41,753 nucleotides of DNA from Jimgerdemannia flammicorona (taxonomy: Eukaryota): assembly GCA_003990765.1 (NCBI GenBank), contig RBNJ01000098.1:1-41753 (forward strand), given 5' to 3'. The notes under the pieces were generated by a model. The model searched no databases. It was not told the origin of the DNA and was given only the letters and a program-made list of their open reading frames with translations. Below, in pieces: positions 1-37,688 of the stretch (its first letter is position 1; the number at the start of each line of letters is the position of its first letter). A program made the position numbers and the translations under genes.

Positions 1-3000
1 TGGTTGTACTTGATATAGCGCCCGCCAACCCCGATTCTATGAAAATCCTGGTGGAGAGTCCATGCACAAGATGTCATTGGCGTTCTGGATGTTGGCATGA
101 TTCCAGCACATGTTAGGGAATCCCGGTCCGGGGCCGACTTTAACGACTTGCGGCAACATGCTGTTCTCGTTACTGGTGAGAATATCAGTATTCTCGCAAA
201 TGAGAGCGACAGAAGTACGTTGGTCAGGTTTAGAAATTTCAGGAACCCGATGCCGTGCAATTTTGGGTACGCGTTTTGCGGTATGTTGGACGAGTTTGGC
301 GATGTTGACGGGACCATCATGGCTGTTACTGGCAGTTGTTCGACGGGGGATTGCAGAGGTTGACTAGGATGTGTATTCAGATCTATCTCCCTTTCTAGTC
401 GGACATGGTTATCATTCGTAGTTGTTCGACGAGATTGTGGGGTTGGCTGGGATCTGTGTCCAGGTCCTCATCCATATCTAAATACTCGATAGGAACAAGT
501 TGAATATGGACCTGAGACACTAGTCGTCCAAATGCGACACATAAGGTGCCGGCAATCTCCGGAAGGAATCGTCGCTCTTGCTACCTTGCGAGCGTGGTTT
601 CTAATGACTCGGAGGTGTTCGCAAAATGAACTGGACGATATGCGCGGTTTCCTAATTGGTCGACCGTTTGGGCTTCTCGATATGGGTACTGTGGGTGGGA
701 CGTTGTGAACACGAAATGTGGAGAAAGCCCGATGGCCTCGCTATTGCGCTGTCTAATCATCGCCGTCGAGACTTCCGCGATGGTATCCAGTGGTGTGCGA
801 ATAATTTCGGAAACACACAACACTTAGAACAGGCAACCGGTAACCTCCCTTGTGCAAGCAAGACACTTGTGGAGCCTTTCGTAAGTTTTGGTTACACACT
901 TGCGCCATTGAACATTCAAATTGTCCTGCCGCACCCTTCTCGCATTTTCAACGGCTTTTCGTTGGGTCATGACTTGTATGGGCGGGTTTTCGGAAGCGCA
1001 TTTTGCGTTTATGCTGTCGTTGGCATTGATATTGACATTAGCGTTGAAATTGGCATTGGCGTTGAGACTGGAGCCCGAGGGACGGCATCCTTTTCGAATC
1101 GAATACGAACATGGACCTTACCATTGCTTCGAGGTCAAGGTTGTAATGGATAGCGACGTCGACACGGGTGAAATGGCGGCAGCTACTTGGCGTTCCGACG
1201 AAGTGCTTTCGCCTAGTTGTACGACCCACCTTGGGTTTGGAAGATGTGGAGTCCATATGGATACAAGCAGTTTCGGGGTCTGTTTTGTTAACAGCCGCTG
1301 GGCGCTTCTTTGGAGCTACGGTGTGGATAATAGTGCTAGCAGCGGCGTAGCGCTTGGAGGATGCAGCCCCATGGCTCGTTGTAGAATCAACCACGGCGAC
1401 GTCGCTGTAGTGGTTGCAGGGCTCGTAGTTATAGATGCTATAGGACGCGTCGTGGAGCATGCCGCTAAGCGCCTTATGCTTGCAACTGTGGGACGTGTGG
1501 AAGTAGCAAGAGCGGCGCGCGTCGGGGTAGGACACGCGGGGAGCGACGTGTAATCGGCCGCGCGGCGCGTCGTAGAAGTGGCCATGTGGCGAGACGACCT
1601 TGAGTGTCGCGGTGGAGGCATCGTGATATAGCGCATCGCGGTGGAGTGCGTCGTGACCGACCGACGTTGTTGCAGCCACGCCTTGAGTGGTGGAGCGCGT
1701 GGCAAGGGAGGGCATGGTGGAGGAGTGCGTCGTGATAGAACGACGTAGTTGTAGCCAGCCTTGAGTGCTGGAGCGCGTCGCAAAGGAGGGCATGGTGGTG
1801 GAGCGCGTCGTGGTGGAGCGCGTCGCGATAGGCGGGGCGCGAGGGAGCAGCAGCCACAGGACAGCCTTGACTAGTGCAGTGGAAGACGTCGTGGTGGAAC
1901 GCGTCGTGGTGAAGCGCGTCGTGATAGTGCCAATGGGGTACAATGTAATAGGGCCTCCGGGGTGCGACGTTGTTGCGGACGCGGAACAACCTTGAGTGGG
2001 GGAGCGTGTCGAGTTGGAGGGTCGGGATGGAGGGCGTCGTAGTGGAGCGCGTTGTGGTGGAGCATGGTGTCGTGGAGCATGGTGTGGTGGAGCGCGTCGT
2101 GGTGGAGTGTGTCGTGGTGGAGCGCGTCGTAGCAGCAGCCCCGGGACGTCCTTGACTAGTGAAGCGCTGCAGTTGAAGGCTTCGTGGTGGAGCGCGTTGT
2201 TGTGGAGCGCGTCGTGATGATGCGAGTCGTGATAGGGCCAATGGAGTACGTTGTATTACGGCCTCCGGGGCGCGACGTTGTTGCGGACGCGGAACACCCA
2301 TGAGCGGTGGAGCGCGTCGAGTTGGAGGAGGTTGGGATGGAGGGCGTCGTAGTGGAGCGCGTTGTGGTGGAGCACGTTCTGGTGGAGCGCCTCGTGGTGG
2401 AGCGCGTCGTGGTGGAGCGCGCGTCGTGATAGGGCCCGCGGGGCGCGACGTAGTAGCAGCCACAATGAAGGGCGTCGTTATGGAGCGCATCGTGTTGGAG
2501 CGCGTGCCCACGGGGCTCCTCGTTGTTGCAGCCACGGGCTGGCCTTGAATAGTGGAGGGCGTCGCGGTGGAGGGCGTTAAGGTGGAGTGCGCCTTGATGA
2601 GCGCGTCGTGATAGGGCCAGCGCAGCGCGATATAGTAGCCGCCACGGGCCGGGCTTGAGTGGTGTAGCGTGTCCCGGTGGAGGGCGTCGTCACAATGAAG
2701 GGTGTCGTTATGGAGCGCATCGTGTTGGAGAGCGTGCCCGCGGGGCTCCTCGTTGTTGCAGCCACGGGCTGGCCTTGAATAGTGGAGGGCGTCGCGGTGG
2801 AGGGCGTTATGGTGGAGTGCGCCTTGATGAGCGCGCCGTGATAAGCGCGATATAGTAGCCGCCACGGGCCGGGCTTGAGTGGTGTAGCGTGTCCCGGTGG
2901 AGGGTGTCGTCACAATGAAGGGCGTCGTTATGGAGCGCATCGTGTTGGAGCACGTGCCCGCGGGGCTCCTCGTTGTTGCAGCCACGGGCTGGCCTTGAAT

Positions 3001-3260
3001 AGTGGAGGGCGTCGCGGTGGAGGGCGTTATGGTGGAGTGCGCCTTGATGAGCGCGCCGTGATAGGGCCAGCGCAGCGAGATATAGTAGCCCCATTTCCTT
3101 CAATAGAGCTTCCTAAAAGAAAATAAAAATATGCAAAAAGTCAATTCTGATATATCAACTGTCTCTTTTTTTCATTACGATAAGGTAAGATATTAATTAT
3201 ATAATCAATACTCACTCTCCCTCAACCCCTCCGACAGTGCATGCACACTTGCTGCTGACA
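1..3260 (-). pseudogene. Decayed 3' continuation of the gene above: His/Arg-rich repeat exon followed by unique sequence running off the window
   Basis: Reading through two stops (TAA 3261, TGA 3222) reaches a GTGAGT donor at 3215. A 103-nt intron ending TTTTAG at 3113 joins in phase 0 to EALLKEMGLLYLAALALSRRAHQGALHHNALHRDALH. Downstream are frameshifts and stops, a KCLACTREVTGCLF Cys cluster near 820-870, and an open frame over ~1-315. Confidence 0.45.
1550..3090. repeat. GC-rich hierarchical minisatellite: 15-nt core GTGGTGGAGCGCGTC inside ~310-bp and 220-230-bp higher-order units
   Basis: CACAATGAAGGG(C/T)GTCGTTATGGAGCGCATC recurs at 2461, 2691 and 2911. GCCTCCGGGG..CGACGTTGTTGCGGACGCGGAAC recurs near 1953 and 2261. 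Confidence 0.9.
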
Positions 3261-5800: not shown

Positions 5801-7540
5801 GGCGGAAGAGGTGACGAGCTGAGTAAGCGACGCATTACGACCATTCTCGCTGGGCCACAATCAGGCTCGCTGTTAATGAAGAAGAACGACGAGTTGTGAG
5901 CAACGCAACGACTTGATACCGGACAATTATTTACTGCAGGACAACGATCTGTAGCTGGGCGACGCTTTGCCGATTCAACCTTGCTAGCAAATTAGGGCTA
6001 CGTTACGACGACTTACTTTTGGGTGGTAATAGTGCAACAACTTGCCACGGGGGGTGACGCATTGCGACGCGGCAATTGAACTTGAGGGGTACGCCGAAAG
6101 TCGCTGGGAGATGGTTAGCCGCTATGAGAAGGCAAGCCGTTGAGGTATGAGAACAGCTGAGGATGGTGATGGACGAAATGAAGAGGGACGGCGGAATGGC
6201 AGAGTGTAGCACAATATGCAAGAAGAACTTCGTCTGTTTCAAAAAACGTCCACGGTCACGTGAGCACCTTCGCCACATTTCGACTTTTGCGAAATTCAGA
6301 TATCGAATGTATGTACATAATTGTTGGTTAATGCAGGAGAGCCTCGATGTTGGCAAGTGGGTTCCAATGCAATATCACAGGCTCCCCAATTATTTTCTGC
6401 TAGAGTCTGATATGGAGATTTTTTTTTTTTTTTTTTTGCTATTTATAATCCTTTTAAATACATTTACCTTATAAAAATATATATAACCTGGCTTGCAGGT
6501 ACTTATTGATTTGTTGCATTCCCCTACAAGTAGCCCTGAATAGACCAATTAGTTGAGGTTGCAGTCTATAAGCCAAATATCTATTAAGTGCAAATATGAA
6601 AAGTTCCTCCTCAAGCTCTCTTTTAAATTCTCAAATTCACCTATCTGATTTGTCACTCATTTCTGCCAGCTATAGATCAGGAACCCTGGAAAGTATTGCA
6701 TATATCAAGACTGGGTAAGTATGTATGATACAAAGAAATATATTCAAATAAATTGTTTGTGTTTTGAACAAATGATGGGGAGGGGGCTGCAATAATATGT
6801 CAAAAGCACGCGCGAATTAGCGAAATGGCGTAGTGGCAAAAAAAAATAAAAATAAAAACGAAGTGTTTCAATAAGGCGGAGACATAAAAATGTCGAAATG
6901 GCAGGCGAGGAGCAGAATGCGTGACAATCTTGGGGCCGCAAAAATGTCATGTAAGGAAGGATGGAAATCGAAAAGGGGAAATAAGGTTATGGGTAATGTC
7001 GATCTGGATTTTGGGAGGATCTATAATAAATAAGGCATATTAAAGAAATGTAAATAATACTACCATGTGGCTAACTACCGAGAGAAAAAATATTTTAATA
7101 CCAGGAAAAAGAGTGGTAAATTGTTTGAAGGGGAACAGCGTCATGAAATCTCCCAAAGCAGAATTACAAAGATTGTGCATGGGAAACGGTCATCTGGCAC
7201 ATAAGACACAAAGGTGGACAAGCAGGGTCCAGCGAAACATCCATATGCTTAAGGAGGAGCTCATCTGCCTTGTAGGCGAAACACGACGAGTATTACCTCA
7301 CCATAGCAATAGTAGTAGGTTAAACAACAATCTACAGGAAACGACATCTATATTCGAAGTATTGAACATGGGCGAGTTAAAAAGAAAAACGTATAGGGTG
7401 ATGCGATATATATGTATGTAGGTAGCCGTTCGCTGATTGCGCCAATTTCACTTGGAATACTGGTGGCTAAGCAAATTAACGGAAATATGTCACTCTGCGA
7501 ACATTTATATGGTCTCAGCCCAATCTCTCATAAATTAAAT

Positions 7541-7629
7541 GAAAGTGTAGCTTAGGAGTGAGTCCCTCCGATGATGGATGGTTTCAATTCCCGGAGGAGG
7601 GAGCTGGGTTCGATTCCCGGCCTTACGCA
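7541..7629 (+). tRNA. tRNA-like pseudogene or tRNA-derived Pol III element, with a tRNA-Gly-like 3' end
   Basis: Intact T-arm/B-box CTGGG-TTCGATT-CCCGG followed by CCTTACGCA. A-box-like TAGCTTAGGAG at 7548. CCTCCG/CGGAGG stem between them and an oligo-T tract just downstream. The acceptor stem does not pair and there is no canonical anticodon loop. Confidence 0.5.
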
Positions 7630-9284
7630 CTATATATATTTTTTTTAATATATTTTTCGTCGATTGGCCTGGACTAGTTACGTCACCCAGGCCAATCGAC
7701 TGACTGGCCAAAATAATCGCGTGGCTCCTTGCCCACTTAGTATACCTCCCGATCAGCACACCACTCTCCCATTCTGGCTGAACGATTTCATGAATTTTCC
7801 TCACTCACGCGCGGTTCCAAATTTTTCTCTCTCTGTGCCAACAACTGCATTCCTCGCGTGAGGATCCTGCAGTCCTCCCCCCTAACCAAGAAACATTTCC
7901 GTTCTGTTTGTGTTACCATGTTACTCTATTTTGTTACCAACCTGACAGCCCTCCTCGAAAACTTGAGACCTTCGGAATACTCTAGCTATTAGCTCCCGAA
8001 ATTTTTGAGATCATCTGAGCCTTCGCTGTCTTTTTTCTTCCTTGTCGCACATTACCTACTTTCATGAAAACCGTGGACTGCCAACGAAACTGGCTCAACC
8101 ACCAGCGGATGTCCTAACCATCACCACGCTACCCATCTAACTCCGCGCCTTCACAACGAACCCCCGAACCTCATTCGCAAAAGCCCAAAGTTCATCTCAT
8201 CTCACCAATGTCAAATTTGAGCACAGGAACACCGTCGGCGTCTCGAAATTGTTTGCACTACAACTACAGCACGACTATCACAACTAAGGGTGCGTGAACT
8301 TTGAGACGGTGCTGGGCCTCGGAGAATATGCTGGTGTTAGTTGTTTATTTGAAGGGCATGCCTGTGATGAAGGCCACCCTACGTTTGAAGTTTTTAAAAG
8401 AGACGGAGAGTGAGTGGATGGTTCCTATTATTGTTTTTTTTTTTGCCTTGTCAACTGAAATTCATTTGAATGCCAGCACATGTTCGCCCTCCGATCTATG
8501 TTCAAGGAGCGCTTCCTATATCTTTTCCAAGATATCCATTCGCTATACCAAGAGGTTGTTGTATTACATGAGAACTGAAAAATAAAAAATTCCTAACGGC
8601 GCCGGAGGCAATTGTCACAAAATGGTTGTGGTAAATGATTTCTAGGTTAAGAAAGTTTATTACTTCAGTTTTCAAGTTTATATCTCCACATTCATTTTCA
8701 CCATCATACCATAGAACACCATTCTGCTAGGCATGACATTTGTAAAAATGAGACGACGATTATATGTCCTCCCCCTAGTGAAAATAGTTTCAATGTTGTT
8801 GACATGCTGCACAGAGCCCATCGGGCGATCTTCCTGCATGCTTGTAGTTTACCTCGTTGGATATTCGTTTCATCACTTTCAGACGACATACTTACGATTA
8901 TAAGATATTGTGAGACATTGCTGGATTTAACGCGCCTTCCACCCAGAAGCTTTAAAAATGCACTTGATCTCGATGTAATTTTCGGTAGATTTCTACAGGC
9001 GGCTTTCGATCGCTCTTGGAGGAGCCCGTTCCATCAAAAGGGCAAGCGCGGGGACTTGGGAATCGGTACTGTCTTCTACTTCCTCTGCCTTTCTCCCTTT
9101 CAAATTCCTTGATAATTCCAGATATGCCTTTGGCTCAACACACCTCTCTTTTTCTTTTACTACTCTTGTTCTGTCTGCATTTTAACGAACTGGTCAATTG
9201 GACGCATTCTTGTTCAACACATACGTCCAATAAATGAAAATATGCTGAAAATTACTGACCAAAACCAAATTTTGACCATGTCCA

Positions 9285-11070
9285 ATTATACAAAACAAGC
9301 AAGATGAACACTAGAATTCAAGAATTCAAACTTTCATTCCCAGAATTCGCTCCCTACGGTTACATACTCCCCACAATTAGATATTCACGATTAGGCAATA
9401 CATACATTTTCCTTTCGGCTTCTCCTCCTACAACTCCTACTGGCCGACGCTTTTCTTGGCCTTGCCATTTACATGTCCGGCTATACGAACAAACAAATGA
9501 GCATTAGCATTCAAAAATTCACACCGTCATCCCAGCGTTCTCTCCCCACGGTTAAATGTTCCCCACGGCTACATACCAATACACATTCTTTCCCTTCGGC
9601 TTCGCCTCTTCGTACGACTCCTCCAGGCCAACGACCTTTTTGGCCTTACCCTCTACATTTCCGGTTATACGAAAATAAGCAAGAGGAGCATTAGTATTCA
9701 ATTATTCAAACTTTCATTCCCAGGATTCGCTCCCCAAGGTTACATATTATCGAATAGGCAATACATACTATTTCTCTTTGGCTTCTTCTTTTCACTCAAC
9801 CCCTCCTGGCCGAAGTCCTTCTTGGCATTGGCCTCTGCACGTCTGGTTTATGATAACAATTGTACGAAAACAGATGCGATGAACATTATTATTAATATTT
9901 CACCACAAATCTCTGCAGACATTTACATATATACTATATACAAGGGAGCACATACTTTTTCACCTTCGCAGCTCCTTGTCAACCAAATCCACTTCGGAAG
10001 GCCGAATGCCGACCTCTTCTTCAGCCTTGGCCTCTTTGTGTTCAGTTGTATGAAAACGAGCAAGATGAAGATCAACATTCAAAAACCATACTTTCGTCCT
10101 CAGAATTTGCTCCCCAAGCTAACATAATATATATCAGAAAATAATACGCTTTCCCCTCCATTGCTCCTTTTCTTCCAAATCTACCTTGGGTCAACATCTT
10201 GCTCTGCCTTGCCCTCTACATATCTAGATAAAAGAAAACAAATAAGGTTAAAATTAGTTTTCAAAGCGTTTGAAATGGATAGAACATAATGACAAAATTT
10301 TCCACACTTCCTTTCCTACCCACAGTTATTTACTAAGAAATACATACTGTTTCTCCTGGGCTCCTCTGCTTCTCCTAACTACTCCTCCGAATGCAGAGGG
10401 CCGACCTCCTCCTTGGCCTTGTGTTCTGCATGTTCGATTGTATGAAAACGAGCAAGATGGACATTAGAATTCAAAGCATTTTGGATAGCATCATATAATA
10501 ACCGTAATAACTCTGCTCTTTCGTTTTCGGTATTCGCTGCAATGCATAAACGTTATCTGCAAGAAAATACATACTCTGTCCCCTTAGCTGATCTTCTTGC
10601 TCCAATTCCTCCGAATGCAGAGGGCTGACCTCCTCTTTCGCCTTGCGTCCTGTATGTTCCATTGTAATAAAGTGAGGGAAATGATTAAAATTGAATATAT
10701 TAGGGAGAGAGACATATTAGCCAAAAAACTACACACTTTAATTCCCAGCATTCCTTTCAACGCCTACATTACAGCTATCTAAAAATACATATTCTTTTCT
10801 CAAGACAACTCCACTTCCTCTAACCCCCCCTCGGAGTACAGATGGCCTATCTCCTCAGCCTTGCTCTCTGCGCATGAAGAAATTAGTATTCCATTCATTG
10901 GGAATAGAATCATACAAAAACAAAACAATTCCACATTTTCGTTTTCGGAGTTTGCCACCCTCTTTAACATATTATCTGAGAGACAATACCTATTCTTCCT
11001 CTTTGGCCGCTCCTCCTCAAAATCATCTTCGGAACACAGGGGGAATTTGTAATCGACGACCTTTACTAAT
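9285..11070 (-). repeat. Tandem array of about 9-10 exon+intron modules (~180-220 bp) encoding Lys/Glu-rich peptides
   Basis: On the - strand most units have a GTATGT donor, a CTAAT branch point, a pyrimidine tract and a YAG acceptor (CATGTAG/CATGCAG). Measured exons are about 63-78 nt, 3n, phase 1, e.g. GKAKKVVGLEESYEEAKPKGK and ANAKKDFGQEGLSEKKKPKRN. Some contain stops. Confidence 0.8.
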
Positions 11071-11319
11071 GGGAGAAGGCAAGACAAGAAAATATTTTGG
11101 CGAGAATAAAAACCACATACCAAATGACTTCAATCAATACATCTAATGCATACCTCTTCTGAGCTTCATCCCATCCGCGTGGCGGTTGTCGTCGTACGTC
11201 ATCGTCCTCGCGCCCTTCGTTTTCCTATTTTCACCACCTGTGTTGCCCAGTGAGATAGAGAAGGAAAGGAAGGAGGTTAGTAATATTTAACGATTTAAAG
11301 CATCAATACCATCGCCCTT

Positions 11320-11785
11320 TATGATCGCCACTCCACGTACCATCTGTTGGGTGTCAAAAACGGAAATAACGACTCCTGACCCAGCATCGCTTGGCGAATA
11401 ATACGTACCCTGGTGTTGCAAGAAACTCTTGCACATTGCCGTCCCACTTCTCAATCTAGATGAATACGAAATTGTCGATTTCGCCAACGCTAATTGTCTT
11501 GAAGATATTCTTGTTTTTAACCCTTAGAGATATCTCCATCTCCCGCTGGAAATCGCGCAAGTGAGCCGGTTTCAGCCGTTTCGAGAAGAATTGGACGGCC
11601 GTTGTACGAAAATCAGGATGCCGGGCTTCATGCGCCAAACCGAAAGATCCTGCCCCAGCTCCCAGATCACGGAAAGGTCGGCATTGACACAGGAACCAAA
11701 GTAGAAAAAGGTAAGGTCGGCTTCCTCAGTGAGAACGTATTCGGAAAGATCGGGTTGCTCGTCAGATGGGTCGCCGGGTTGACCT
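11320..11785 (-). pseudogene. Protein kinase pseudogene fragment (subdomains I-V plus start of VIa; no C-lobe)
   Basis: With one frameshift and one stop: WELGQ(G)SFGLAHEARHPDFRTTAVQFFSKRLKPAHLRDFQREMEISLRVKNKNIFKTISVGEIDNFVFI*IEKWDGNVQEFLATP, then a GTACGT..CAG intron and MVRGVA. The spacing of the Gly loop, alphaC Glu (FQREME), KNI and hinge matches eukaryotic protein kinases. Confidence 0.8.
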
Positions 11786-12419
11786 TTGGAGATAGCGAAA
11801 GAGGGAACATATACTCTCTCATATACTTTTGCTCCGTACTTGCTACTCAGAGAACTCTAACACCAAATAAATAAGTATTAATAACAGTATAACATACAGG
11901 TTGGTTGTGAAGAACTATTCTGGAAAACGTTATGGTCGTCGTTCCGGCTCATGAGTTTGGTGTTAAATAAGATTGCTATGGCAACCATAAGACTTCCACG
12001 TCCAAAATAATATCCACTATGTCAATCTCCTCAACTTCATCAATATCATTTATTATGCCATCGATTTCAACTGTTGTCATTCTTTTTCGATGTTGATAAT
12101 ATCTTCCTTTCCTCTTTGGTTAGACTGTTGAGGTGCCTGAGGAAATGCGAGTTGACTCTCCAGAGAGGGGTGGCGCCCAAATAGGTGCCGGACATTGTAG
12201 AGTGCGTTATTGAGGATGCAGTTGAGATGCCATCCAGATTATTTTCGTTTTCGTTTTCTGCTATGATAAATTGAAGCCTGTGCGATTCCTCTTGCATGCG
12301 AAAGAAACGATACCACCTGGTGATGGAGGGGAATTGCAGACCTTTCCGAAATGGTGACGGAGCGCCGATATGTCATCCCGCTTGAGTGTGTTCAGATTTA
12401 AGCCAGTCAAAATGACCTC

Positions 12420-15400
12420 CTTGGCCGGCATTGCACGCCGTTGACTGGAGTTGGTGACCGGAAGGTTGCGGGCGTTGTTGGGATGTCAATCTGTCGCCGT
12501 CATCTTAAAGAAGATATTTATCGCCCCCAGGTGTCGCCTAGAGTTTGGGGTTTGATTCCGCAGACTTACCTTTAGGACAACAAAGGAGGGGAAATAAGCC
12601 TCAGTCAAATACTATACGTTAAGGGCTGTCGATCGTACGTCTTACAGAAAACGAACTCGTCAACAACGGGGATGCCTCGGATTAAAACGATTTGTTGGTG
12701 GCCGCACAGTTTACCTTTTGGTTATTCTACATATTTGCATGTGACAGAAAGTGTTGATATGTCGCTCGGTCGCCTCCAGTTTCGAGATTTCGCCCCCAGA
12801 CTATGCCGCCCCAAATGTCGGATATAGGTCGGTTCTGACAATGAAAGAGGAGGAATAAATACGTCAGTCAAATAATATACGTCGTGTGCTGTTAATCGTA
12901 GTTTTTGCACAGAAGAACTCGTCACCAAATCCCAGTATATTAGGATTAAACAAGCAATGTATTATAGAGAGCACAGCATACTTTTGATAGTTCTGCATAT
13001 TAGCATTGCACGTCACTGACAAATATTAGGTGACAGGAAGGCTGTAGACACTATTGAAATGTCGCTCAGTCGTCTTCGGCTTCGAGAAGAGATTCACCAC
13101 TTAGGTTTCGCACCCAAATCGCGTCGCCTCGAGTTCGGGTTTTGGTTCGGTTGCCTTGCCTTTGGGGAAATAAAAGAGGTGGAATAATATGTCAGTGAAA
13201 TTCTATGCACCGAGGGCTCTTAATGATAGTTCTTGAACAAAACGAACTTGCCGCCAACAACTGCGATGCTTCAGATTAAATTAGCGAAGTATTGACGGCA
13301 GCGCAAATACCTTTTGGTTGTCCTGCGTACTGGCATTGCACGGCGCTGACAGGAGTCGGTGACAGGAAGGCTGAGTACATTGTTGAGATGTCGCCCGGTT
13401 ACCGTCAGCTTCGTGAAGAGTTTGATAGCAGATGGTTTTCCCCAAGATCAAGTCACCTTCAGTTCATTTGACTTGCCTTTGCGACAACAAAAGAAGGGGT
13501 ATAAATATGTCAGTCAAACACTATTACGTCGAGTTCCATTAATCGTAGGTCTTACGTCGACAACATCTGGAATACCTCGAATTAAACAAGCGATCTGCTG
13601 GTGGCAGCACTGCAGACCATTATTTTTCTGCGAATTAGCATTGCACATCGTTGACAGAGTTGGTGACAGGAAAGCTAAGGATATTGTTGTTATGTCGCTC
13701 GGTCGTCGTCGGCTTCCAAGTGTCGCCTCAAAATCAGATCGTGTCGCCTCGAGTTCAGGCATTGCTTCGGTTGCGACAATAAAATAAAATGGATGAATAT
13801 ATTACTTTAGTTAATTACCATTGCGTCGTGTGCTGTTAATCGTAGGTCTTGCACAAAACAAACTTGTGCCATCAACTGAGATGCTTCGAATTAAACAGGC
13901 GATGTCTAAGAGGGAGCATAACATACCTTCTGGTTGTTCTAAATATTGGCATTGTACGTCGTTGACAATGAGTTGATAACAGGAAGGCTGCGGACACTGT
14001 GGAAATGTTCCTCGGTCGCAGTCAAGTTCAAGAAGAGTTAGTTTCACTGTGCAGGTGTCGCCCCAGATCGCATCGCATCGTGGATTCTCCTGTCTTTCCT
14101 TTTGGACGACAAAAGAGGAATAAATACATCAGTCAAATTCTATGCGTCGAGGCTGTTAATTGTACATCTTGCACAAAATGAACTCTTCGCCAACAACTGG
14201 GATGTTTCAGATTAAACATACCATGAATTTCGTTTGTTTTGCACGCCTTTGACAAGAGTTGGTGAAAGGTAGGCTGCCGATGTGGTTGATAAGTCGCTCC
14301 GTCGCCGTCAGCCTCGAGTTGTCGCCCTCCAGATTGTGTCGGCTCTAGTTCGGGTTTTGGTTCGGTTCTGAGGAGGAACAAATAGGTCAGAAATACTATG
14401 CATCGAGTGCTGTTAAACCTAGTTCTTACACAGAAGAACTCGCCGCCAACAACTGAGATATATTGAATTAAAGAGCATAGCGTACCTTTTGGTTATTCTG
14501 CATATTGGCATTGCACATCGCTGACAAAAGAGTTGGTGACAGGAATTCTGTAGACGTTGTGGAAATGTCGTCGGCTTCGAGAAGAGTTTCACTGCGCAAG
14601 TGTCGCCCCCAGATCGCATCGCCTCGAGTTAGGGCTTTGGTTCAGCTGGCTTGCCTTTGAGACAATAATAGAGGAAGAAAATACATCTGTCAAATGCTAT
14701 GTGCCGAGGGCCCTTAATCATAGGTCTTGCAAAAGACGATCACGTCACCAACAACTGGGATGCTTCAGATTCCACAAGTGATCAGAACAGCATACCTTTT
14801 GGTTGTTCTGCTTATTAAAATTGTTCTGCATATTGACATTGCACAGCGTTGACGCCAGGAGGCCTGCCGACTTGTTGAAATGTCTCTCGATCGCTGTCAG
14901 TTTTGAGAAGAGTTTCGCTGCACAGACATCGCCTCCGGAACATGTCGCCTGGCGTTGGCTTTGTTAAATTGAGAAAACGAAAGAGGAGGAATAAATACGT
15001 CAATCAAATACTATTGCGTCGAGTTCTGTTAATCGTAGATATTGCACAGAAGGAACTCGTCGCTATCATCAGAGTGGCAACGCAGCATGCCTTTTAGTTG
15101 TTCCGCACATTGGTATTGCACGTCGTTAACAAGGGTGCAAGAAGTGTTTGATAGCAGAGGTGTCGCCACCAAAACCTGAAGCCTTCAGTCCAGTTGACCG
15201 GCAATAAAAGAGGAATAAATAAGTCAGTCAAACCCTATTTCCCCAAGTGCTGCTAATCTTAAGCCTTGCACAAAACGAACTCGTTACCAATGTCTGGGGT
15301 GCCTCGGATTAAACAAGTGATTTGTTGGTGGCAGCGCAGCATATCTTTTGGTTGTCCTGCGAATTAGCATTACACGTCGTTGACAAGAGTTGGTCACAGG

Positions 15401-18160
15401 AAGGCTGCGGACGTTGTTGAGGTATCGCCCGGTTATCGTCGGCTTCGAGAAGATTTATCGCGCAGTTGTCGCCCTCAAAACGTTCCGCCTCGAGTCCGGG
15501 CTTTGATTCAGTTTGCTTGGCTTTAGGTCAACAAAGGAGGAAGAAATACGTTAGTATAATACTATGTGTCGAGTGCCGTTAACCGTAGGCCTTGCGCAAA
15601 ACTAACTCGTCGCCAACAAATGGATGGCAATACAGCATACTTTTTGGTTGATCTGCATATTGGCATTGCGCATCGTTAACTAGAGTTTGAAACAGAAGGG
15701 CTGGAGACGTTGTTGAGATGTCGCTCGATCACCGTCAGCTTCAAGAATTTGATAGCAGAGGTGTTGCCCCCAGAACATGGCGCCTTCGGTTCGGTTGACT
15801 TGCCTTTGGGGCAATAAAAGAGGATAAATAAATAAGTCAGTCAAACAATATTGCCTCTGGTGCTGTTAATCATAGGGTCTTACACAAAACGAGCGCATCG
15901 CAATCATCTGGGATGCCTGGAATTTAACAAACAATTTATTTGTGGCAGCACAGCATACCTTTTGGTTGTTCTGCGTACTGGCATGGCACGTCGTTAACAA
16001 GAGTTGGTGGCAGGAAGGCTGCGGACGTTGTTGTGATGTCGCTCGGTCGCAGTCAGCTTCGAGGAGATTTGATTGCCTTCGGAGCATGTCGCTTTCGGTC
16101 CAGTTGACTTGCTTTTGAGATAATAAAAATGGAGGGATAAATAAGTCAGCCAAATGCTATTGCGTCGAAAGTTGTTAATCCTACGTCTTGCACAAAACGT
16201 ACTCGTCAACAACTGAGATAACAAGCGATGTATTGGTGGGGGGCACCGCCAACGGTTCCGTTCTGCATATTTTCATTGCCCGTCGTAGACAGGGCCGGTG
16301 ACAGGAAGGCTGGGGAAATTGGTGAAATGACGCTCGGTCCTTGCAGATTCGAGAAGAGTTGTGTCGCACAGGTGTCACTCGTAGTCGAGTTTGGGCTTTT
16401 ATTCAGCTGACTTGCGTTTGGAACAATGAAAGACAAGAAATAAATACGTGACTCAATATATATGCGCCAAGATAGTTGTTTGCCTGTGGTTCAGTTGACT
16501 TGCCTTTGAGAAAAGGGATAAACAAGTCGAATACTGCGACGTGGACCTGGATCAACCATTGCAACAAAATCGGAGGAATAAATACGTCAGTCTAATACTA
16601 TTGCGTCGCGTGCTGTTAATCGTAGGACTTGCACAATTCGAAATCTTCACCAACACCTGGGATTCCTCCGATTAAACAATTGATTTTCTGGTGGCAGTAC
16701 AGCATACGCTTTGTTTGATCTGCATATTGGTGTCGCACGTTATTGACAAGAGTTGGTGACAGGAAGACTGTGAGATGTCGCTTGGTCGCCGTCAGCCTCG
16801 TGAATTGTTTTACCACGCAGGTGTCGCTCCCAGAATGAGTTGGCTTTGTTCAGTGGACTTGCCTTTGGGACAATAAAAGAGGAGAGATAAATAAGTCAGT
16901 CAAATACCATTGTATCGAGTTCTGTTAATCGTAGATATTGCATAGAACGAACACGTCGCTAACAACAGGGTGACAACGTAGCATACCTTTCGGTTGTTCT
17001 TCGCATTGGTATTGCACGTCGTTGACAATATTTGGAGACAAAAAAGCTGTCAACTTTGTGATATGTCGCTCGGATGCCATAAGCTTTAAGAAGAGGTTGG
17101 TAGCAGAGGTGTCGCACCCAAAACCTAAAACCTTCGGTCCAGTTGACTTCCCTTGCGACAATAGAAGAGGTCAAATAAATAAATCAGTCAAAACCTATTA
17201 CGTCGCTGCTAATCGTAAGCCTTGTACAACACGAACTCGACGCCAACATCTGGGATACCTTGAATTAAACAAGCAATCTTTTGGTGGCAGCACCGCATAC
17301 ATTTTGGTTGTTCGGCGGATTAGCATTGGCCAGGGACGTCGATATGTATATAACTCGGTCGCCGTCAGCTTCGAAATGACGCACCCCAGATCATGTTTCC
17401 TCGAGTTTCGACTTTGGTTCTGGTGACAATGAAAGAGGGGGAATAAATACGTTATTCAAATACTATGCGTCGACCTAGGTCTTCCACAGATGATCTCGTA
17501 ACCAACAACTGAGATATTTCGGGTTAAACATGCGATATATTTGAGGCAGCACAGCACACCTTTTGGCTGTCTGCATATTGGCATTGCACGTCGTGGGCAA
17601 GGAGATTTGTGATAGGAAGGCTGCGGAGGCTAGCGAAATGTCGCTCGGTCGCCGTTAACAGTGGGGTCGCCTCCAGATCGTGTCACCTCGAGTTCGGGCT
17701 TTGGTTCGGTTGACTACAATATGAGGAGGAATAATACGTCAGTCAAATACTCTGCGTCGTGGGCTCTTATTCGCAGGCCCCACACAAAACGATCCCACCT
17801 CCAACAACTGGGTTGCTTCAGAATAAACAAGCGATGTGACAGTGGCCAGCATGGCATACCTCTTGGTGGTTCTGCATATTGTCATTGTACGTCATTGGCA
17901 GGAATTTGCGACAGGATGCCCGTGGAAGTTGTCGATATACCGCTCGGTCATCGTCAGCTCCGAGAAGAGCCCCGCCGCGGAGGTACCGTCCCCTGAACAT
18001 GTTCGGTTGCCTTGCTTTTGGGACAATAAAAGTGGAGTCGGTCAAACACTATTGCTAATCGTAGGTCGTGCACAAAACGAACTCGTTGCAACAACTTGGT
18101 GGTAGCACAGCATACGTTATGGTTTTTCTGTATACTGGTGTCGCAGGTCGTTGACAAAGA
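12420..18160 (-). repeat. Tandem array of about 20 diverged exon+intron modules (260-330 bp)
   Basis: The anchor GAATAAATACGTCAGTCAAA (+) recurs about 20 times from ~12590 to ~18040. On - the unit reads CTGAC branch point, pyrimidine tract, AAAG|exon|AAAAG GTATGC donor, ~150-nt intron. Confidence 0.9.
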
Positions 18161-18249
18161 TTTGGAGAGGGGAAGGCTAGGGACAGGGGAGGGCTGGGTA
18201 TTTTGTAAAATATTTCGACGAGGGAGGTAGTTGGGAATGAATATCGGAA

Positions 18250-18430
18250 TATTATTCTAAGGGAAAGGAGAGATTAGGAGGCAGGAGAGAGTTCGAAGGG
18301 GAGAAGAGTTCAAAGGGGGAAGAGGGGAGAGGGAGAGATAGAGGATAGTGAAAGTTCGAAGAGGGAAAGAGAAAAAAGGGGGGGTGGGGGAAGAGGAAAG
18401 GGGCAACAGGAAAGTCATGTGGGTGTGTGG
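18250..18430 (-). promoter_or_regulatory. CT-rich leader, putative transcription start region of the 9.1-18.4 kb minus-strand locus
   Basis: Long polypyrimidine tract on - directly upstream of the first donor (GTATGC at 18115). CT-rich leaders are typical of fungal promoters and 5' UTRs. Confidence 0.4.
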
Positions 18431-19045: not shown

Positions 19046-19633
19046 ACAGTCGAAAATATCTACAACCCATTATTGGTAAGACCTCGACGGACGACTACGG
19101 CAGCCTGTTTTCTGTCCCCTTAAATTCTGAGCTGGCAGCCACGCACTTTTTCGACCCTTTGCGAATTGCGAATGGCCCTTACTTAATACCGAATTCATAT
19201 TGACCTCTACTTATACTATCCTTGCCTACTACCCGGGGCTCGACTGGACGGAGTCCTGTGTAAGAAGAACTTTGTCAGGGTGTCAGTGAGATACGGGCAT
19301 GTGGATGTGCTTATTAAAGCGTTTGCTGGATCGTTGGAGGTTGCGGATGTGTAGTGGGTGAGATATTGGCAATGGGACCCAGGGAGAACAATGGTGCGAC
19401 CAAGAATTAGGCAAATGTAGGGAGTAAGTATTGCTCTCTTGGAATAAGGTTATGACGACATCTGCAGGCGGGTTTATCAGGATATCCTAGTGAGGGGAAT
19501 ATCAAGCATGAGGATAAATAGTACAAGGGGCACCACAATGACAACGGACGGCCCTTAATAATACGTATTTGCTCATCAAACGGATGAGGTTATCAATTCC
19601 CCCTGTTGGAGATACGAAATAAATGAACATTCT

Positions 19634-19826
19634 TGGGAAATACAGAACAATTTGAACGTCGTAAAGGACGTAGTAATGATGGTTTATACTATTCAGATCG
19701 TTGAAGTTAATATAGGTAAACTATACATGTTGGGAAATACAGAACAATTCGGACGTCGTAAAGGACGTAGTATTGATGGTTTATGCTTACAGATCCATGA
19801 AGCAAATACAGATAAACTATACATGT
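19634..19826. repeat. ~97-bp direct tandem duplication
   Basis: TGGGAAATACAGAACAATT..ACGTCGTAAAGGACGTAGTA.TGATGGTTTAT...TAAACTATACATGT occurs at 19634 and 19731. Confidence 0.85.
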
Positions 19827-19879
19827 TCCTATTCTCTACAACCCATTACTATTTACTGCAATCTGGTGCTCTCTACCAG

Positions 19880-20398
19880 CTTGATTAATTAGGAAACGAT
19901 TCCCTCATGGCATTCCCTCATAAAATATTCATACGTTTCGGTCTCAACATAACGGAAGGTGGGGGCAATGCCATCACGACTCGAAAGCCTCAATTTATGA
20001 ATTATATACCTTCGACGGCTTGAAAAAGACCTGAACAACGCAGGGACCTCCCGAACGTTCAACTCCATAGATGCATCCCGTGGTACCCGACCAGAGCTTT
20101 TCATGAGCTTGAGCCCCAGCTGCACTATGAACCTCCCAGGGACTTTGCCTCGCATTTTTGCAATATCGTCCTTGGGATCATAAATTCGAAGAGGGCAGGG
20201 CGTGGAATCCGGACGCTAGGTATCGGTTTGGCGGCGGCTGCAGGTACAGGGCTTGGTTTGGGTATCGGTTTAGCGACAGTTGCTGGAGCAGGACTTGGTT
20301 TGGGTCCATCAGGCATCGGTTTGGCGACAGCTGCAGGAGCAACACGAATCGGTTCAGGGGGCCCAACATCGGTAATTTCATGCAGTCAATCAATTTCC
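19880..20398 (-). pseudogene. Kinase N-lobe pseudogene fragment with a Pro/Ala-rich linker (copy 1)
   Basis: AKPMPDGPKPSPAPATVAKPIP...YDPKDDIAKMRGKVPGRFIVQLGLKLMK(fs)LWSGTTGCIYGVERSGGPCVVQVFFK, then a probable intron and TYEYFMRECHEGIV (alphaC / subdomain IV-like). Contains frameshifts. Confidence 0.6.
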
Positions 20399-22554
20399 TG
20401 TTGGGACGTCACTCTCTTTTGACAGCTCGGTTTACAAAATCATAACGAGCAACACCGTCCTGCATCAAATCGGATCGCAATTCCATTAATCCTGCGCCGA
20501 AAGCTGATAAATATATTTGATAAGTTGTTTATTGGGGATGAGGGAGATGTGACCACACACGAATCGCGTGATTTTGATCTTCTTAAACGAATTGCAATGT
20601 AAACCGATCTCGTGGTGTACTGATTAGACTGGGACAGGTCTGGCTGGTCAAGGGCGTTCTAACCTCACCAGCCGGTACTTTTTCTAAATTTTCTATAACC
20701 GGATCACATGACATAGTTGATGGCATTGTATGTGTTTTTCTGTTTAAACGTGTTTTCTCTCTAATATTCATGTCATACAGGTCTTTTTCTATTGTACACA
20801 TGTCATTCTGTTATTCACAGTTGTCCTACGCTATGGACTGTGCCTCGATCTTATCTTATCACCTAGGCATCCCGTCTTCTAGGACGTCGAATATATCCCG
20901 GGTCTTCTGTTCGACTTCAAGCTAGCACATGCACACACCGTCATCAATGCAACTATCCTGCACAGCTTGCAGAAGCACGTGCTTGTCCAACGCTGACAAG
21001 GTAAAATAAAAGAAATTCTCGAATAGAATATATATGCCAATGCCACCAATTATAACATCCTTATACTTTATTTATTTATTTATTTATTATTATTAATATT
21101 ATTATTGTGTTGTTGTTATTGAGACCACATGTCAAGTGTTTCTCTGGGGGTTTCTACTGTTATTTGCGGTTTAAAAAAAAAAAAAAAAGACATCTTTTAC
21201 TTCAAAATTTCAAACAGTTCAAGGATAATGTCATCTCAAAACCCACATCATTATACAATTTTTTGCACAGCATTGGGTGCGTCGGGAACGCCCTGCTCCT
21301 TAAAAACACAGGCACCATCCTCGTCGGCGTCTTCGTCATCACTAGTAACATCTGCGTCTCTTCGACGTCTAGCCCCACCCTCTCAGTGAGCACCTGCATA
21401 TCATCGCCTATCCCTTATTTCTCAAGCAACGATCATAGTCTAAGCAACTGCCCTCCGTTCCCATCGTCCTGCCCTTTCTCTGAATATAAATCCATCTCTG
21501 CTTCATCCACCATCTACTCTCGTCTTATAAAGCCCCTTCGCATCTCCACTGGCCTCCGCCTCCTCTTCCTTCCGCGCTCCCTACCACCCTATCCGACGAA
21601 GGGGGAAGTGGAAGGACAAAAGGGAAGGAACGACAAAGGGGGTTCAGTGAATGAATAAGATATTATTCAACGTTCATCCAAATGGAAAGCTAGTCACTAT
21701 TTGTCCGCGCATCACGTGAACCACTTCGCTCCTAAATCGCACCGCTATAATCTAATCCATGTACCACAGGCGACCAATTTGGAATTTTTATAAAACAAAA
21801 CTTGCCACTTGAATTTCGGCTCCTGGAAAGCTTCGGAACTTCGCGATATCGTGCAGGATGTATAACCAGTGAAAGTCCGGCGTTTAAAAATACATATTGT
21901 TCAGATCCTGCCCCATTTGGAGGCTGCTCCTTTTCTGCTTCTAATTGGGACGCATGATTTTTGGGCCCCGTTTCGCACCCCTTTTGTACTTTTATTATAT
22001 TATATTATATTATATTATATTATATTATATTTTTTATTTTTTTTTAATTTTATTTTATTTAAGACGTAGCGGATCGGGTTCTACTATACTGTAGTCGAAA
22101 TTTCGCATATCGGCAAGCCACTCAATCTTTTCATGATCGCAAATGGATAAGCGGGCGGAACAAATTGATTGATCCACTTAGCGCCATCGGCGCAAGTAAA
22201 ACGCCCTAGATTATGATCATTCATGCAGGAATTTGATTGGTAGCTAATATTCATGCTGGAACGCAACGTTCATGCAACGTGGGGCATGTGGCTTAGCCAT
22301 AAGCACCAGTATGACGTGATGGTTTCATTTTCCACCACAACGCGCCCACACATAAGTGCTCACCTCCCCCTCGCCCCTGCAAATATATCGTCCTTCCTCC
22401 CCTCCACAACATAAGTGTTCTTCGCTCCACCCTTCGTCCCTACCTTCCAGGCAAAATATTCTTCATTCCACACTTCCACATTTTTCGCCTTCGAAAGCCT
22501 TTCTTGCCACCTGCAAGCGTAGGAAATCTAACCCTTCGAACTCGAACACGAGAA

Positions 22555-22684: not shown

Positions 22685-25620
22685 CGATCCCAGTTGAGCC
22701 TGGCCTGACTAACACCCTCGCCAAAACACGTCAAGGCTAGTCACAATTCCCAAGTCTTTGCCTCGTTTGTCAACCAAAGGTCCATTGCGAAGGACCTTTC
22801 TCTTGACTTACCCACATAGACTTCCTCATTCGAACATTCTGGGGGATCTGTACAACATACAACAAACAGTAGCTCAAGGTCACTTTGTATTTGTTTTTCG
22901 CGGAGAAAGTGTCTATCACCGTCAATCGATCCATTGTTCATGTCCATTCTCCAACTTTCATCCAGACTATCTGACCATCGCTTCCAGTTAAACCCACACC
23001 CTCATCAAGATTCATAAAAGCTAGCCAAGATTCCCAATCTTTGTCTCATTCGCGGCTCGATGACGCAGAGCAAACAAAGGCCAGCTACTGCGAAGGACCT
23101 TTCTCTTGACTTGCCCACATCGACCTCCGTGTTCGAGTGTACACTTTGGGAAACCCATCCAATATCCAGCCAGCAGCAATTCAAGGTTAGATTTTTGTTG
23201 CTTTTTGCGGATAAAATATCTGACATCGTCCATCGTCCATCGTACCATTGTTCATCATCCGTCACGTCCTTCCTCCAACGTTCATCCAGATTATCCAACC
23301 CTCGCCTGGCCCTCATCACGGCTCGTCAAGGCTAGTCAAGATTCCCCCAGCCTTTGCCTCGTTCAACCATATGCCAGCTATTATGAAGGACCTTTCTCTT
23401 GGCTTACCCATATCGACCTCCACATTCGAGAGGACATTCTGAGGGATCTGTCCAACATCGGTAATCGTCTATCGTTTCATGGTTCATTATCCATCATTCA
23501 TTGTGTCCATTCCCCAACATTCATCTAGACTGTCTGATCCTCGCTCCCAGTTCAGCCTAGCCCTGGCTGACACCCTCACAAGAGTAGTCAAGATTACCCA
23601 GCCTTTGCCTCGTTTGTGGCTCGATGTCGCCGAGCAACCAAAGGTCAGCTATTGCGAAGGACGTTTCTCTTGACTTGCCCACATCGACCTCCGCATTCGA
23701 GTGCACACTCTGGGAAATCCATCCAATATCTATTCCAGGTAAGATTTTTCTTGCTTTTTGCGGAGTCATCCTCTATCGTTCATCGTTCATTTGTCGTGTC
23801 CATCCTCCGACGTTCATCCATATTATCCGACCCTCGCATGGCCATGGCCATCACCCTCATCAAGACTCGTCAAGGCTAGTCAAGATTCCTCAGCCTTTGC
23901 CTCCTTCGTGTCTTGTTGAGGCCGAGCAACCATTACGCCAGCTATTACGAAGGACCTTTCTCTTGACTTACTCATATCGACCTCCGCATCTAGACGATCT
24001 ATCTAGTATCCGTCATCGCCCATCGTCTCATCGTCCGTTATCCATTCATCGTTCGTTATCCATAATTCATCGTGTCCATTCCCCAACATTCATCTAGACT
24101 GTTCGATCCTCGCTCAGTTCAGCCTAGCCCTGGTTGACACCCTCGACAAGACTCAAGAGTAGTCAATGTTGTCTCGTTTGTGGCTCGATGTCGCCGAGCA
24201 ACCAAAGGCCAGCTATTGCGAAGGGATGATAGTTGATCCCCAGAATATGTTCTCGAATGCAGAAGTCGATGTGGGCAAGTCAAGAGAAAGGTCAGTGAAC
24301 CGCAGCTCAAGGTAAATCTTAACTTTGCTTTTTACAGAGAAACCGGTTGTCATCATCTAGCGATCCATCGTTCATCATATGTCCAAATTTTATCCAGATT
24401 ATCTGACCCTCGATCCCAGTTGAGCCTGGCCCTGGCACGCACTCTCGTTAAGAGTCACCAAGGCAAGACAAGATTCCCTAATCTTTGCCTCATTCGCGGC
24501 TTCATGTCGCCGAGCAACCAAAAGCCAGCTATTGCGAAGGACCTTTCTCTTGACTTGACCACATCGACTTCTACATTTGAAAACACATCTAAGGTAATGT
24601 AGTTAACATACAACCAACAGCAGTTCTCTAGGTCAGTTCCATCATTGCTTTTCTCGGAGTAACGTCTGTCATCATCTATCGTTCCATCGTTGATCATCCG
24701 TCATGTCCATCCTTCAATTTTCACCCCTGGCTCACACCCGCATTAAGACTCGCCAAGGCAAGTCAAGATTCCTTTATCTTTGCCTCATTTGTGGCTCGAT
24801 TCGCCGAGCAACTAAAGGCCAGCTATTCCTTTCTCTTGACTTGCCCACATCGACTTCTGCAAAGGAGACACATTCTAAGGGATCAAATTAACATACAAAC
24901 AACAGAAGTTCAAGGTCAGTTCCATCTTTGCTTTTCGCGGAGAAAACGTCTGTCATCAATATTGTTCCATCGTTGTTCTGTCATATTCATCCTTCAACTT
25001 TCATCCAGATTGTCTGACTTTGGATCACAGTTGAGCCTGGCCCTGGTTCACACACCATCGTCAAGAATCGTCAAGGCAAGTAACGATTCCCTAGTCTTCG
25101 TCTCGTTTGTGGCTCGATGTCGCCGAACAACCAAAGGCCAGCTATTGCGAAGGATCTTTCTCTTGACTTGCCCACATTGACTTCTGCATTCGAGATCACA
25201 TTCAAAGGGATTTAATTATAATACAACCAACAGCAGTTCAAGGTCAGCTCCGTTGTTCTTTTCGCTGATAAAACGTGTCATCACCTATTGTTCCATCGTT
25301 GATCGTCAGGCATGTCCATCCTCCAACTTTCATCCAGCTTATCTGACCTTCGATCCCAGTTGAGCCTGGCCCTGGTTCATACCCTCGTCAAGGCAAGTAA
25401 TGATTCCCTAGTCTTTGTCTCGTTTGTGGCTCGATGTAGCCGAGCAACTAAAGGCCAGCTATTGCGAAGAACACATTCTAAGGGATTTAATTAACATCCA
25501 ATCAACAGCCGTTCAAGGTCAATTTTTCCTTGCTTTTCGCGGGGAAAGTGTCTGTCATCTTCTATCATTCCATTGTTGATTATATGTCATGGCCATCCTC
25601 CAACGTTTATCCAGATTGTC
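22685..25620 (+). repeat. Tandem array of about 10 exon+intron modules (240-370 bp), Ser/Leu/Arg-rich
   Basis: The core GCTATTGCGAAGGACCTTTCTCTTGACTTGCCCACATCGAC recurs about 10 times. Acceptors are TTCATCCAG or TTCATCTAG; donors are AAG|GTCAGT, GTTAGA, GTAAGA, GTAAAT. Two measured exons (24398-24631 and 25009-25242) are both 234 nt. Confidence 0.88.
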
Positions 25621-26628
25621 CTTCGTAGCCCACACGTCGCTTATTACCATCCGACATCCATTAGGTAAGTCTTTTAGATTATGGTAGTAGATATATACAG
25701 ATGGGCGGGTGTGGCTTTGTAGAAGTACCGGCTCATTGTCTGCCTTCGGCTATCCACGTTTGTCATCGGCTATTATCGTCTGTCATCGGCTACATAGTCC
25801 ATCATTCCATCGTTCATCATCCGTCTTGTTCAAAATGCATTCAGAGAGTCCGACACCGTCCATACGTCATCTGTGGCCCGTTTCCATCTCCCCAACATCC
25901 CACATCCCATAGGTTCATCTTCACCAGCAATGGCAATTCAAAGTTAGGTTTTTATTTTTTTATTTCGTGTCGTTGAATAGAATGATGGATTTCTCCTGAC
26001 TATGAGCATCACCATCGTCCCCCCTTCCGCATAGTTATGAAATCTAATCTTTCTAACGTTCCCCTTTCTCAAACCCACCGATTATTATAATTTCTCCGAC
26101 CCTCGCATCTACAATCCTTCCCGCTATTTTTTTTACTCTTTCGCCATGGCCACGAAGGTATGTTTCCAGCAACTCTGGAAGCACAATGGGAGTGTGCGTA
26201 ACTTGGGGGTAGTGTGCTTCTAACTATGTGAGCGCATTTGTTTGATGTGTATTGCTGCCAATGCGAGAACGACCAACACATGCTCACAAATCGAATTATT
26301 TCAATTTCACGATATATTAAATGCTAGAAGCACGACGGTGTTATGCAACTCCAAAGACTGTTGAATGTTAGTTTCTGTTGTCTTCCATTAAAACATTCAA
26401 CTTGTTCAACGACTATTGGATATATACTTATTACACGTCTTCCCATTCGTTTAAAAGGAAAACTACGCCGCAATACCAACGACGACAAGAGATACACTAG
26501 GGTTGTTTGCACAGCCACCAAGTTGCCTGTCCAGTTGATTGGAGCAGTGACCTGGACCGTGTTGAAGACCAACTCCAACACCCCAATGAAAAGGGGCTGC
26601 GGTGGTAGCCATGGCACGTGTATCACGC

Positions 26629-37411: not shown

Positions 37412-37688
37412 CATCATGAAACTAGAATTGCAATTCTGAGGTGTTCTAGAACAAATTTAGCAGTATAGATACACCATTCTAGTTACTAGGGGACATTATT
37501 CTGCAATAGATGAAAATTATCCAAATCATTGCTAAAATATCTGGATATGCACATCACGAAACTAGAATCACAGTTCTGAGGTGTTCCAGAACAAATTTAG
37601 CAGTATAGATACACTATTCTAGTTACTAGGGGACATTGTTCTGGAATAGATGAAAATTACCCACTCATTGCTAAAATATCTGGAAATA
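37412..37688. repeat. ~140-bp tandem duplication at the LINE truncation point; possible end of a second inserted element
   Basis: CATCA(T/C)GAAACTAGAAT...TTCTGAGGTGTTC.AGAACAAATTTAGCAGTATAGATACAC...CATTGCTAAAATATCTGGA occurs at 37412 and 37552. Confidence 0.85.

Follow-up and report, generated by a model that had tools for sequence, protein, structure and literature searches.

A kinase-derived intron array fused to a lysine/glutamate-repeat gene end in Jimgerdemannia flammicorona: a transcribed, spliced and probably non-coding pseudogene

The window analysed here is a 41,753-nucleotide contig (RBNJ01000098.1, hereafter C98) of the Jimgerdemannia flammicorona assembly GCA_003990765.1 (231 Mb in 35,354 contigs), and relatives of the repeat unit and of the kinase sequence described below were searched across those contigs. 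On its minus strand lie a leader exon, an array of short intron-exon units (array 1), a central exon containing the remains of two kinase gene copies and a second array of lysine/glutamate (Lys/Glu)-rich exons (array 2), as listed in Table 1. A first-pass annotation made from the sequence alone had placed all splice signals of the locus on this strand, and indeed they run from 18115 to 12427 in array 1 and from 11237 to about 9270 in array 2. RNA evidence comes from assembled contigs of two runs belonging to two different studies, referred to as X1 and X2. Neither was recorded as RNA; both were taken to be RNA by guess, a status supported by their GT-AG joints. Of the RNA joints 15 of 143 and of the RNA pieces 16 of 457 were listed, and all joint and piece counts refer to these; rare isoforms are dropped from such contigs, and contig depth was not used to rank expression. 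The listed X1 pieces show no difference from the window and the X1 material may be the same as that of the assembly. X2 differs from the window in 16 of 1,229 letters in the centre, with differences at places from 13683 to 9616.

Table 1 Features of the locus in window coordinates
Feature	Position	Strand	Description
Leader exon	18116..18323	-	From the promoter/5' untranslated region (UTR) of the kinase gene; RNA contigs start at 18315 and 18323; donor 18115
Array 1	12427..18115	-	19 units and one partial internal duplicate, ~300 bp each; unit read as kinase-gene first intron plus chimeric exon; predicted non-coding
Central exon	11341..12569	-	1.2 kb, in RNA; to 11409 in X1, to 11341 in X2; last array unit, kinase tail, spacer, retained intron, kinase N-lobe
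C-terminal tail of first, otherwise deleted kinase copy	12260..12430	-	DNA and protein alignment to C17941 and C1516
Spacer and leader of second kinase copy	11898..12260	-	31 nt align with the C17941 leader (1 in 500 shuffles does as well)
Ancestral first intron of second kinase copy	11783..11897	-	Homologous to the C17941 intron; retained in RNA contigs listed
Kinase N-lobe remnant	11411..11782	-	Glycine loop frameshifted (1-nt deletion near 11657); breaks off at subdomain V and lacks catalytic loop and DFG
Fusion point of kinase remnant and Lys/Glu-repeat gene	11404..11412	-	At donor 11408
Linker exon L1	11154..11237	-	84 nt; Lys/Glu family part; homologs in C20995, C9332, C12813 and C11896; fits RNA length arithmetic
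Array 2	9267..11065	-	Decayed phase-1 Lys/Glu repeat exons; about 10 exons counting from 11237
Array 2 exons, first five	11065-10990, 10867-10737, 10649-10575, 10425-10348, 10223-10185	-	RNA joints
Array 2 exons, last four	10033-9956, 9842-9769, 9652-9577, 9480 to about 9267	-	RNA joints

Array 1 had been described as 20 cassette exons; the array is real, but this count includes the partial internal duplicate. Each unit carries a GTATG donor, a TGACTGAC branch-like motif, a pyrimidine tract and an AAAG acceptor. Pairwise identity between units ranges from 67 to 81% (mean 73%), adjacent units are no closer to each other than average, and the tree is star-like. Ten consecutive window units are colinear with an array on contig C5347 at 82-89% identity. 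The divergence of the units together with this colinearity therefore suggests an old expansion, after which whole arrays were copied. Concerted evolution could be ruled out, as for 18 of the 19 window units the nearest relative lies on another contig and not in the window. Units occur on at least 30 contigs (144 unit matches on the first set of contigs examined), a lower bound on contigs which, several of them being near-identical, corresponds to about 20 loci. Leader homologs are present on other array contigs. Kinase-derived DNA follows the units on the same strand on 15 of the 30 contigs, while eight contigs end too soon and seven show none. The units are thus linked to kinases, as initially supposed, and a satellite or dispersed repeat unlinked to kinases was rejected on the same count. 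Across all loci, C-to-T change in array-1 units amounts to 0.21 at CpG sites and 0.13 elsewhere, an excess consistent with methylation-driven decay.

The origin of the unit can be approached via intact relatives of the kinase. A profile of the 144 unit matches finds an intact kinase frame on contig C1516 (expectation value (E) 7e-5), and the consensus exon of the unit matches the beta2-beta3 region of this kinase in blastp (52% over 23 residues) as well as P0001, a J. flammicorona kinase-like protein (41% over 29 residues). The unit intron matches both the intron preceding the intact kinase on C17941 (2 of 1000 shuffles as good) and window intron 11897-11783 (0 of 1000), and the last 69 nt of the unit match the window leader exon and a stretch that runs up to the ATG in a degenerate C7366 kinase (0 of 1000 each) but not the C17941 leader (630 of 1000); the targets of these intron and UTR tests were picked after the profile match in C1516 had been seen, which makes the values optimistic. 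Intron, UTR and beta2-beta3 matches thus suggest that the unit stems from the start of a kinase gene and comprises the end of its 5' UTR, its first intron and an exon start with an internal deletion, repeated in head-to-tail order. Each supposed cassette exon would then be a junction product in which a kinase beta2-beta3 piece is joined to the end of a 5' UTR. Two other assignments were discarded: kinase subdomain X as the source of the 3' half of the unit, which matched no better than shuffles (403 and 570 of 1000), and a hidden coding sequence in place of the unit intron, which aligns with the C17941 intron and at whose ends RNA pieces stop.

P0001 and the kinases on C17941 and C1516 represent the parent kinase family and have the same first intron as the window. 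The C17941 kinase is readily recognized (Pkinase E 6e-42); its best database relative is P0001 at 57% identity and the next match drops to 30%, and the family therefore appears to be lineage-specific. Unlike the window locus, these three have single-exon kinase domains, open frames and no array in the DNA examined, which for C1516 covers only about 180-300 bases upstream. The initial proposal to look for the same arrays around intact paralogs gave a clear separation: all six array-free kinase loci are intact (248-251 of 251 domain residues covered) with no array in the flanking DNA examined, whereas none of the 15 array-linked remnants is intact, the best stop-free frames covering 20-139 of 251 residues. 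The open frame on C1516 (L101:179-1195), the one nearest to the array unit, has HRN for HRD, DFR for DFG and no glycine-rich loop, and probably encodes a pseudokinase judging from these motifs; its contig begins with a long palindrome, possibly an assembly artefact. On C871, C6411 and C7366, fragments of family kinases lie on both strands within a few kb and, if transcribed, could form double-stranded RNA.

In the centre of the locus, the sequence following the last array unit had been taken as unique, but its first part is the C-terminal tail of a kinase, and copies with ~70% identity occur on five contigs (C838, C107, C6103, C19472 and C28004). The last unit had also been read in frame with the open reading frame (ORF) at 12067-12297. 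Formally this is correct, through three stops; the ORF, however, lies mostly in the spacer/leader region (with the second kinase leader at 11898-12010) and in a frame other than the conserved, kinase-homologous frame of the tail, and it carries no weight. The proposed GTATGT..AAG intron at 11897-11783 has a homolog in an intact paralog, but in the listed RNA contigs of both runs it is unspliced, with no gap. Occasional removal is possible since rare isoforms are absent from the contigs. What had been called a kinase exon does contain N-lobe sequence, interrupted by a frameshift (Table 1), and X2 has no indel at that place. Pfam recognizes the remnant poorly (Pkinase E 0.043) and its best stop-free frame covers 71 of 251 domain residues; the open frame through subdomains I-XI, with catalytic loop and DFG motif, that a functional kinase needs is missing from it. 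No nucleoside triphosphatase (NTPase) domain was found by Pfam on three central ORFs.

Lys/Glu homology to the window begins at donor 11408, where the kinase and the Lys/Glu gene share a few bases. An assembly chimera at 11410 was ruled out, the RNA of both runs covering or using the junction. The linker exon, proposed at ~11237-11153, stands at 11237-11154. Array 2 is found on five other contigs, with a non-kinase exon upstream in all four that have upstream DNA. Judging from these homologies, it comes from the 3' half of a gene in a distinct Lys/Glu-repeat family and was fused to the kinase remnant at a donor site. The notion that both flanks of the kinase grew by duplication is thus not borne out: array 1 consists of copies of the kinase gene's own 5' end, and array 2 follows a non-kinase exon in its paralogs. 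Three paralogs (C9332, C4847 and C20995) each have 10 of 11 called exons that are triplet in length, phase 1 and stop-free; the joined exons are stop-free over 215-245 residues with 40-43% Lys+Glu, and the ratio of nonsynonymous to synonymous substitution rates (dN/dS) is 0.54-0.60 (few sites). The copies on C12813, C11896 and in the window are decayed, the latter with five stops in eight exons. The predicted second array of 10 Lys/Glu exons was right as to number, at about 10, and splicing is seen, but several donors are lost and cryptic ones (10736, 10184 and 9576) are used instead. They yield exons of 131, 74 and 76 nt in RNA, and splice rescue is therefore blind to frame.

The three paralogs appear to represent an intact Lys/Glu family with about 11 symmetric phase-1 exons and 18-26 residues per repeat; the 5' ends of these genes are missing because the contigs break at homopolymer runs. 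For the upstream exon of C9332 the only public model found is P0124, a 97-residue partial, and searches for the N-terminus of the family returned no such sequence, with matches only to P0121, P0123, P0124 and one unrelated 3,487-residue protein. A repeat at window positions 8000-9250, beginning where array 2 breaks off, is present on six other contigs, in two of which it adjoins kinase-family DNA (C4042 and C4533).

Eight of the 15 listed joints are GT-AG joints in array 2, seven of them found in both runs. The other seven are non-canonical, including four from one deep X1 contig with a loose end matching the paralog C12813. No GT-AG joint of array 1 is among those listed, and splicing of array 1 is therefore read from piece ends and record coordinates. 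Listed pieces end on array-1 splice sites at 18116, 16861, 16410/16203, 15520, 13764/13575, 13159/12982 and 12569. X2 record 12 has 585 letters between the leader and exon 5, where the exon model has 593. X2 record 10 (2,587 nt) consists of 12982-13159, 121 letters (model 120), an unbroken stretch from 12569 to 11339 and 719 letters, for which the model gives 710 plus the start of the last exon; this one contig spans array 1, the kinase region and array 2. X1 record 1 covers 11407-12365 followed by 158 further letters, as expected from donor 11408 and two exons, and X1 record 2 joins exon 13158-12982 to 273 further letters. In X2, a change at 11404, the +5 base of donor 11408, accompanies reading on to the downstream donor 11340. 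Consecutive array-1 exons occur within one contig (X2 records 10 and 12; record 7), showing serial inclusion; occasional exon skipping in array 1 is possible. No RNA cover was found in X1 or X2 at 7000-8400 and 20543-21000. The RNA comparison called for by the first-pass annotation therefore supports splicing and one unit through its joints and bridging contig, but it yields no coding chain; likewise, of the single gene with 30 or more exons built by serial duplication there remains one spliced unit of about 30 exons, produced by duplication of exons and introns together, with no long frame.

The 30-exon model RNA of 5,067 nt contains 59, 53 and 48 stops in its three frames. Its longest stop-free run is 170 codons and its longest ATG frame 130 (shuffles: median 114, 95th percentile 166), and excising the retained intron 11897-11783 leaves this result unchanged. 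The consensus exon of array 1 measures 178 nt, exon length is a multiple of three in 8 of 33 exons with an intact acceptor, and among 115 non-redundant units triplet indels make up 62 of 230 in exons and 71 of 307 in introns, with no difference between codon positions (p 0.30). Of the 18 array-1 exons in the model, just 2 combine triplet length with an open frame. Array 1 is non-coding by these measures.

Homology to intact paralogs, disabling mutations, introns that were kept, transcription and splicing all occur at the locus, as in transcribed duplicated pseudogenes. We consider it probable that the locus is a chimeric pseudogene that is transcribed and spliced into a non-coding RNA of ~5 kb and ~30 exons without selected function. 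Most likely no kinase or repeat protein is made from it and the RNA has only short ORFs. A ~330-bp piece with the 5' UTR end, the first intron and the internally deleted kinase-exon start would have been duplicated head to tail in an old burst, possibly by unequal exchange, and whole arrays with kinase remnants behind them could then have been copied elsewhere. A rearrangement would have fused the truncated kinase to the 3' half of the Lys/Glu gene at the donor site, by a microhomology join at 11410. The inherited kinase promoter may drive transcription from about 18320, and because each unit carries a full intron, the spliceosome could remove the introns serially. Where a splice site has decayed, the nearest cryptic GT or AG would be used whatever the frame, and the RNA would presumably be exposed to nonsense-mediated decay.

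It should be noted that several points weigh against such a functionless pseudogene. In array-1 units, the donor G ranks first in conservation among 46 non-CpG G columns, and no other of the 16 GT pairs is retained as often as the donor GT (in 80% of 95 units), which weakly suggests selection on splicing. RNA and splice pattern are common to two runs of different studies. The dN/dS of window array 2 against its paralogs is below 1 (0.44-0.45), in our reading a trace of the time when it still coded. On eight contigs the sequence stops within or close to the array, and an intact kinase may lie behind one of these arrays. Further, contigs are not single molecules, and exons e7, e8 and e10-e14 come from the model alone. 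The rank of the donor G, the units on 30 contigs, the conservation of the leader across loci, additional paralog-like spliced contigs that map at 85-95% identity and the colinearity of array order with C5347 could all be explained by a functional family of spliced long non-coding RNAs (lncRNAs), where the RNA or the act of many-intron splicing regulates the parent kinases or neighbouring chromatin. The acceptor AG, however, is kept in 57% of 96 units, an average value and not above, and its place is gapped, often through deletion, in 20 of 85 units. Exon columns are conserved no better than intron columns (0.80-0.85 vs 0.84). Array-1 introns have no Rfam match at E<=1, and 17 of them share no consensus pairs or structure, on which grounds a host gene for small nucleolar RNAs or microRNAs was ruled out. 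The units, about 27% diverged, would mostly be too far apart in sequence to pair with kinase messenger RNA. On balance we regard a functional lncRNA family as unlikely. Nor would we readily assume, though it deserves mention, that the about 20 loci (30 contigs) of many-intron non-coding RNAs are kept by selection on splicing and not on protein; if so, they would be regulators of parent kinases, or a workshop that fuses splice-ready modules to other genes, for which the junction at donor 11408 may be compared.

The continuity of the RNA bears on two further explanations. Short-read assembly might have merged two units that overlap or result from read-through, the first comprising array 1 and terminating in the central exon, the second initiating within that exon and covering the kinase remnant and array 2. 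The second kinase leader at 11898-12010 could carry its own start, the public model P0123 (203 residues) covers array 2 alone, and a contig across two genes does not show a single transcript. Against such a separation stand the X2 contig that crosses the entire centre gap-free and the two X1 records described above. In addition, the intron behind the second leader is retained and P0123 runs through DNA that is spliced out in RNA, and we find merged units improbable. The other explanation, close to the function first suggested, is a kinase gene that codes for protein, is spliced alternatively and has variable repeat arms serving recognition. It would draw on the genuine exon arrays on both sides of the kinase sequence, their genuine splicing, the kinase DNA that accompanies array 1 on 15 of 30 contigs and the coding past of array-2 exons. 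Against it stand the frameshifted kinase without a C-lobe and with no indel at the frameshift in X2, 48-59 stops per frame, the unpreserved frame of array 1, exons joined in series and not as alternatives, and the origin of array 2 in another gene family; this explanation is very hard to maintain. Dscam-type cassette arrays place one exon of the array in each transcript, whereas here consecutive exons appear together in one contig. Fungal NLR-like nonself-recognition genes combine highly similar tandem repeats with a NACHT or NB-ARC domain, unlike the locus with its 73% identical units and star-like tree and with no NTPase domain detected in the three central ORFs.

The putative pseudogene can also be compared with published systems. 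Derivation of lncRNAs from coding genes is known (Hezroni et al. 2017, PMC5577775), an example being Xist, which derives from Lnx3 (PMC2430539). As far as the sections of these papers used here describe them, such RNAs resemble that of the locus in being spliced and non-coding, with an inherited promoter and exons to which repeats were added. The locus differs in that most of its exons are tandem copies of the parent's own UTR-intron-exon start, in that two gene families are fused, in belonging to a family of loci in a fungus, and in that any function of its RNA is putative. Tandem duplication of a gene segment can create new spliced introns and exons (PMC3443670); the cases in the sections used are mostly exonic AGGT segments in coding genes, while here a whole intron with flanks exists in about 19 copies and the frame is lost. 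Exon-modular repeat receptors of the Ectocarpus type, as outlined in PMC3341825, share serial exon-plus-intron modules with the locus, and the Lys/Glu parents likewise have one symmetric exon per repeat. In contrast to these receptors as outlined there, the locus has no open frame, no intact signalling domain and no LRR or TPR, and array 1 was never frame-preserving. One exon per repeat with the frame kept is seen in the three array-2 paralogs but in neither array of the window, and the window locus has no in-frame fusion of repeats to an intact signalling domain. The lncRNA Sirena1 is chimeric, contains part of a pseudogene and feeds RNA interference (PMC7102984). In the part of that report drawn on here, it is like the RNA of the locus a chimeric spliced RNA carrying pseudogene sequence with living paralogs, but its insert is antisense, while the kinase pieces of the locus are sense.

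Search listings of the open-licence literature showed no description of this family, and no case in which the first intron of a gene was copied nineteen-fold without regard to frame and is still spliced across a family of loci. If the pseudogene reading is correct, a many-exon RNA can arise without ever coding, by copying of a first intron with its flanks and splicing of every copy. With well over 100 diverged copies of a single intron, expression in two isolates and a naturally occurring change at the +5 donor base, the family would allow a test of how long splicing persists without coding constraint, and it would equally be suited to asking whether lncRNA splice sites are under selection. 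The locus further appears to be a case of exon shuffling through a donor site, and it draws attention to a family of Lys/Glu-repeat genes that lacks annotation. It also advises caution, as exon arrays beside a kinase in the J. flammicorona genome need not be receptors.

Several other features were noted in the window. Very deep RNA contigs of both runs lie at 19078-19375; they have a non-canonical joint at 19115/19303, their ends are loose on either side, and they probably represent part of an abundant RNA transcribed from a different locus. Two similar Gly/Ala-rich segments (Pro-rich on the other strand) are located at 19693-20445 and 27800-28290, the first with RNA cover. A gene with TPR and SET domains occupies 30192-31787 on the minus strand in two frames (Pfam TPR_1 E 1.7e-8, SET E 5e-7), and a broken reverse-transcriptase element lies on the plus strand at 35257-37436 (RVT_1 E 2.6e-6). 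Additional tandem repeats are found at 2461-3090 (220 bp period), 24745-25469 (317), 26628-27167 (272) and 38894-39321 (72).

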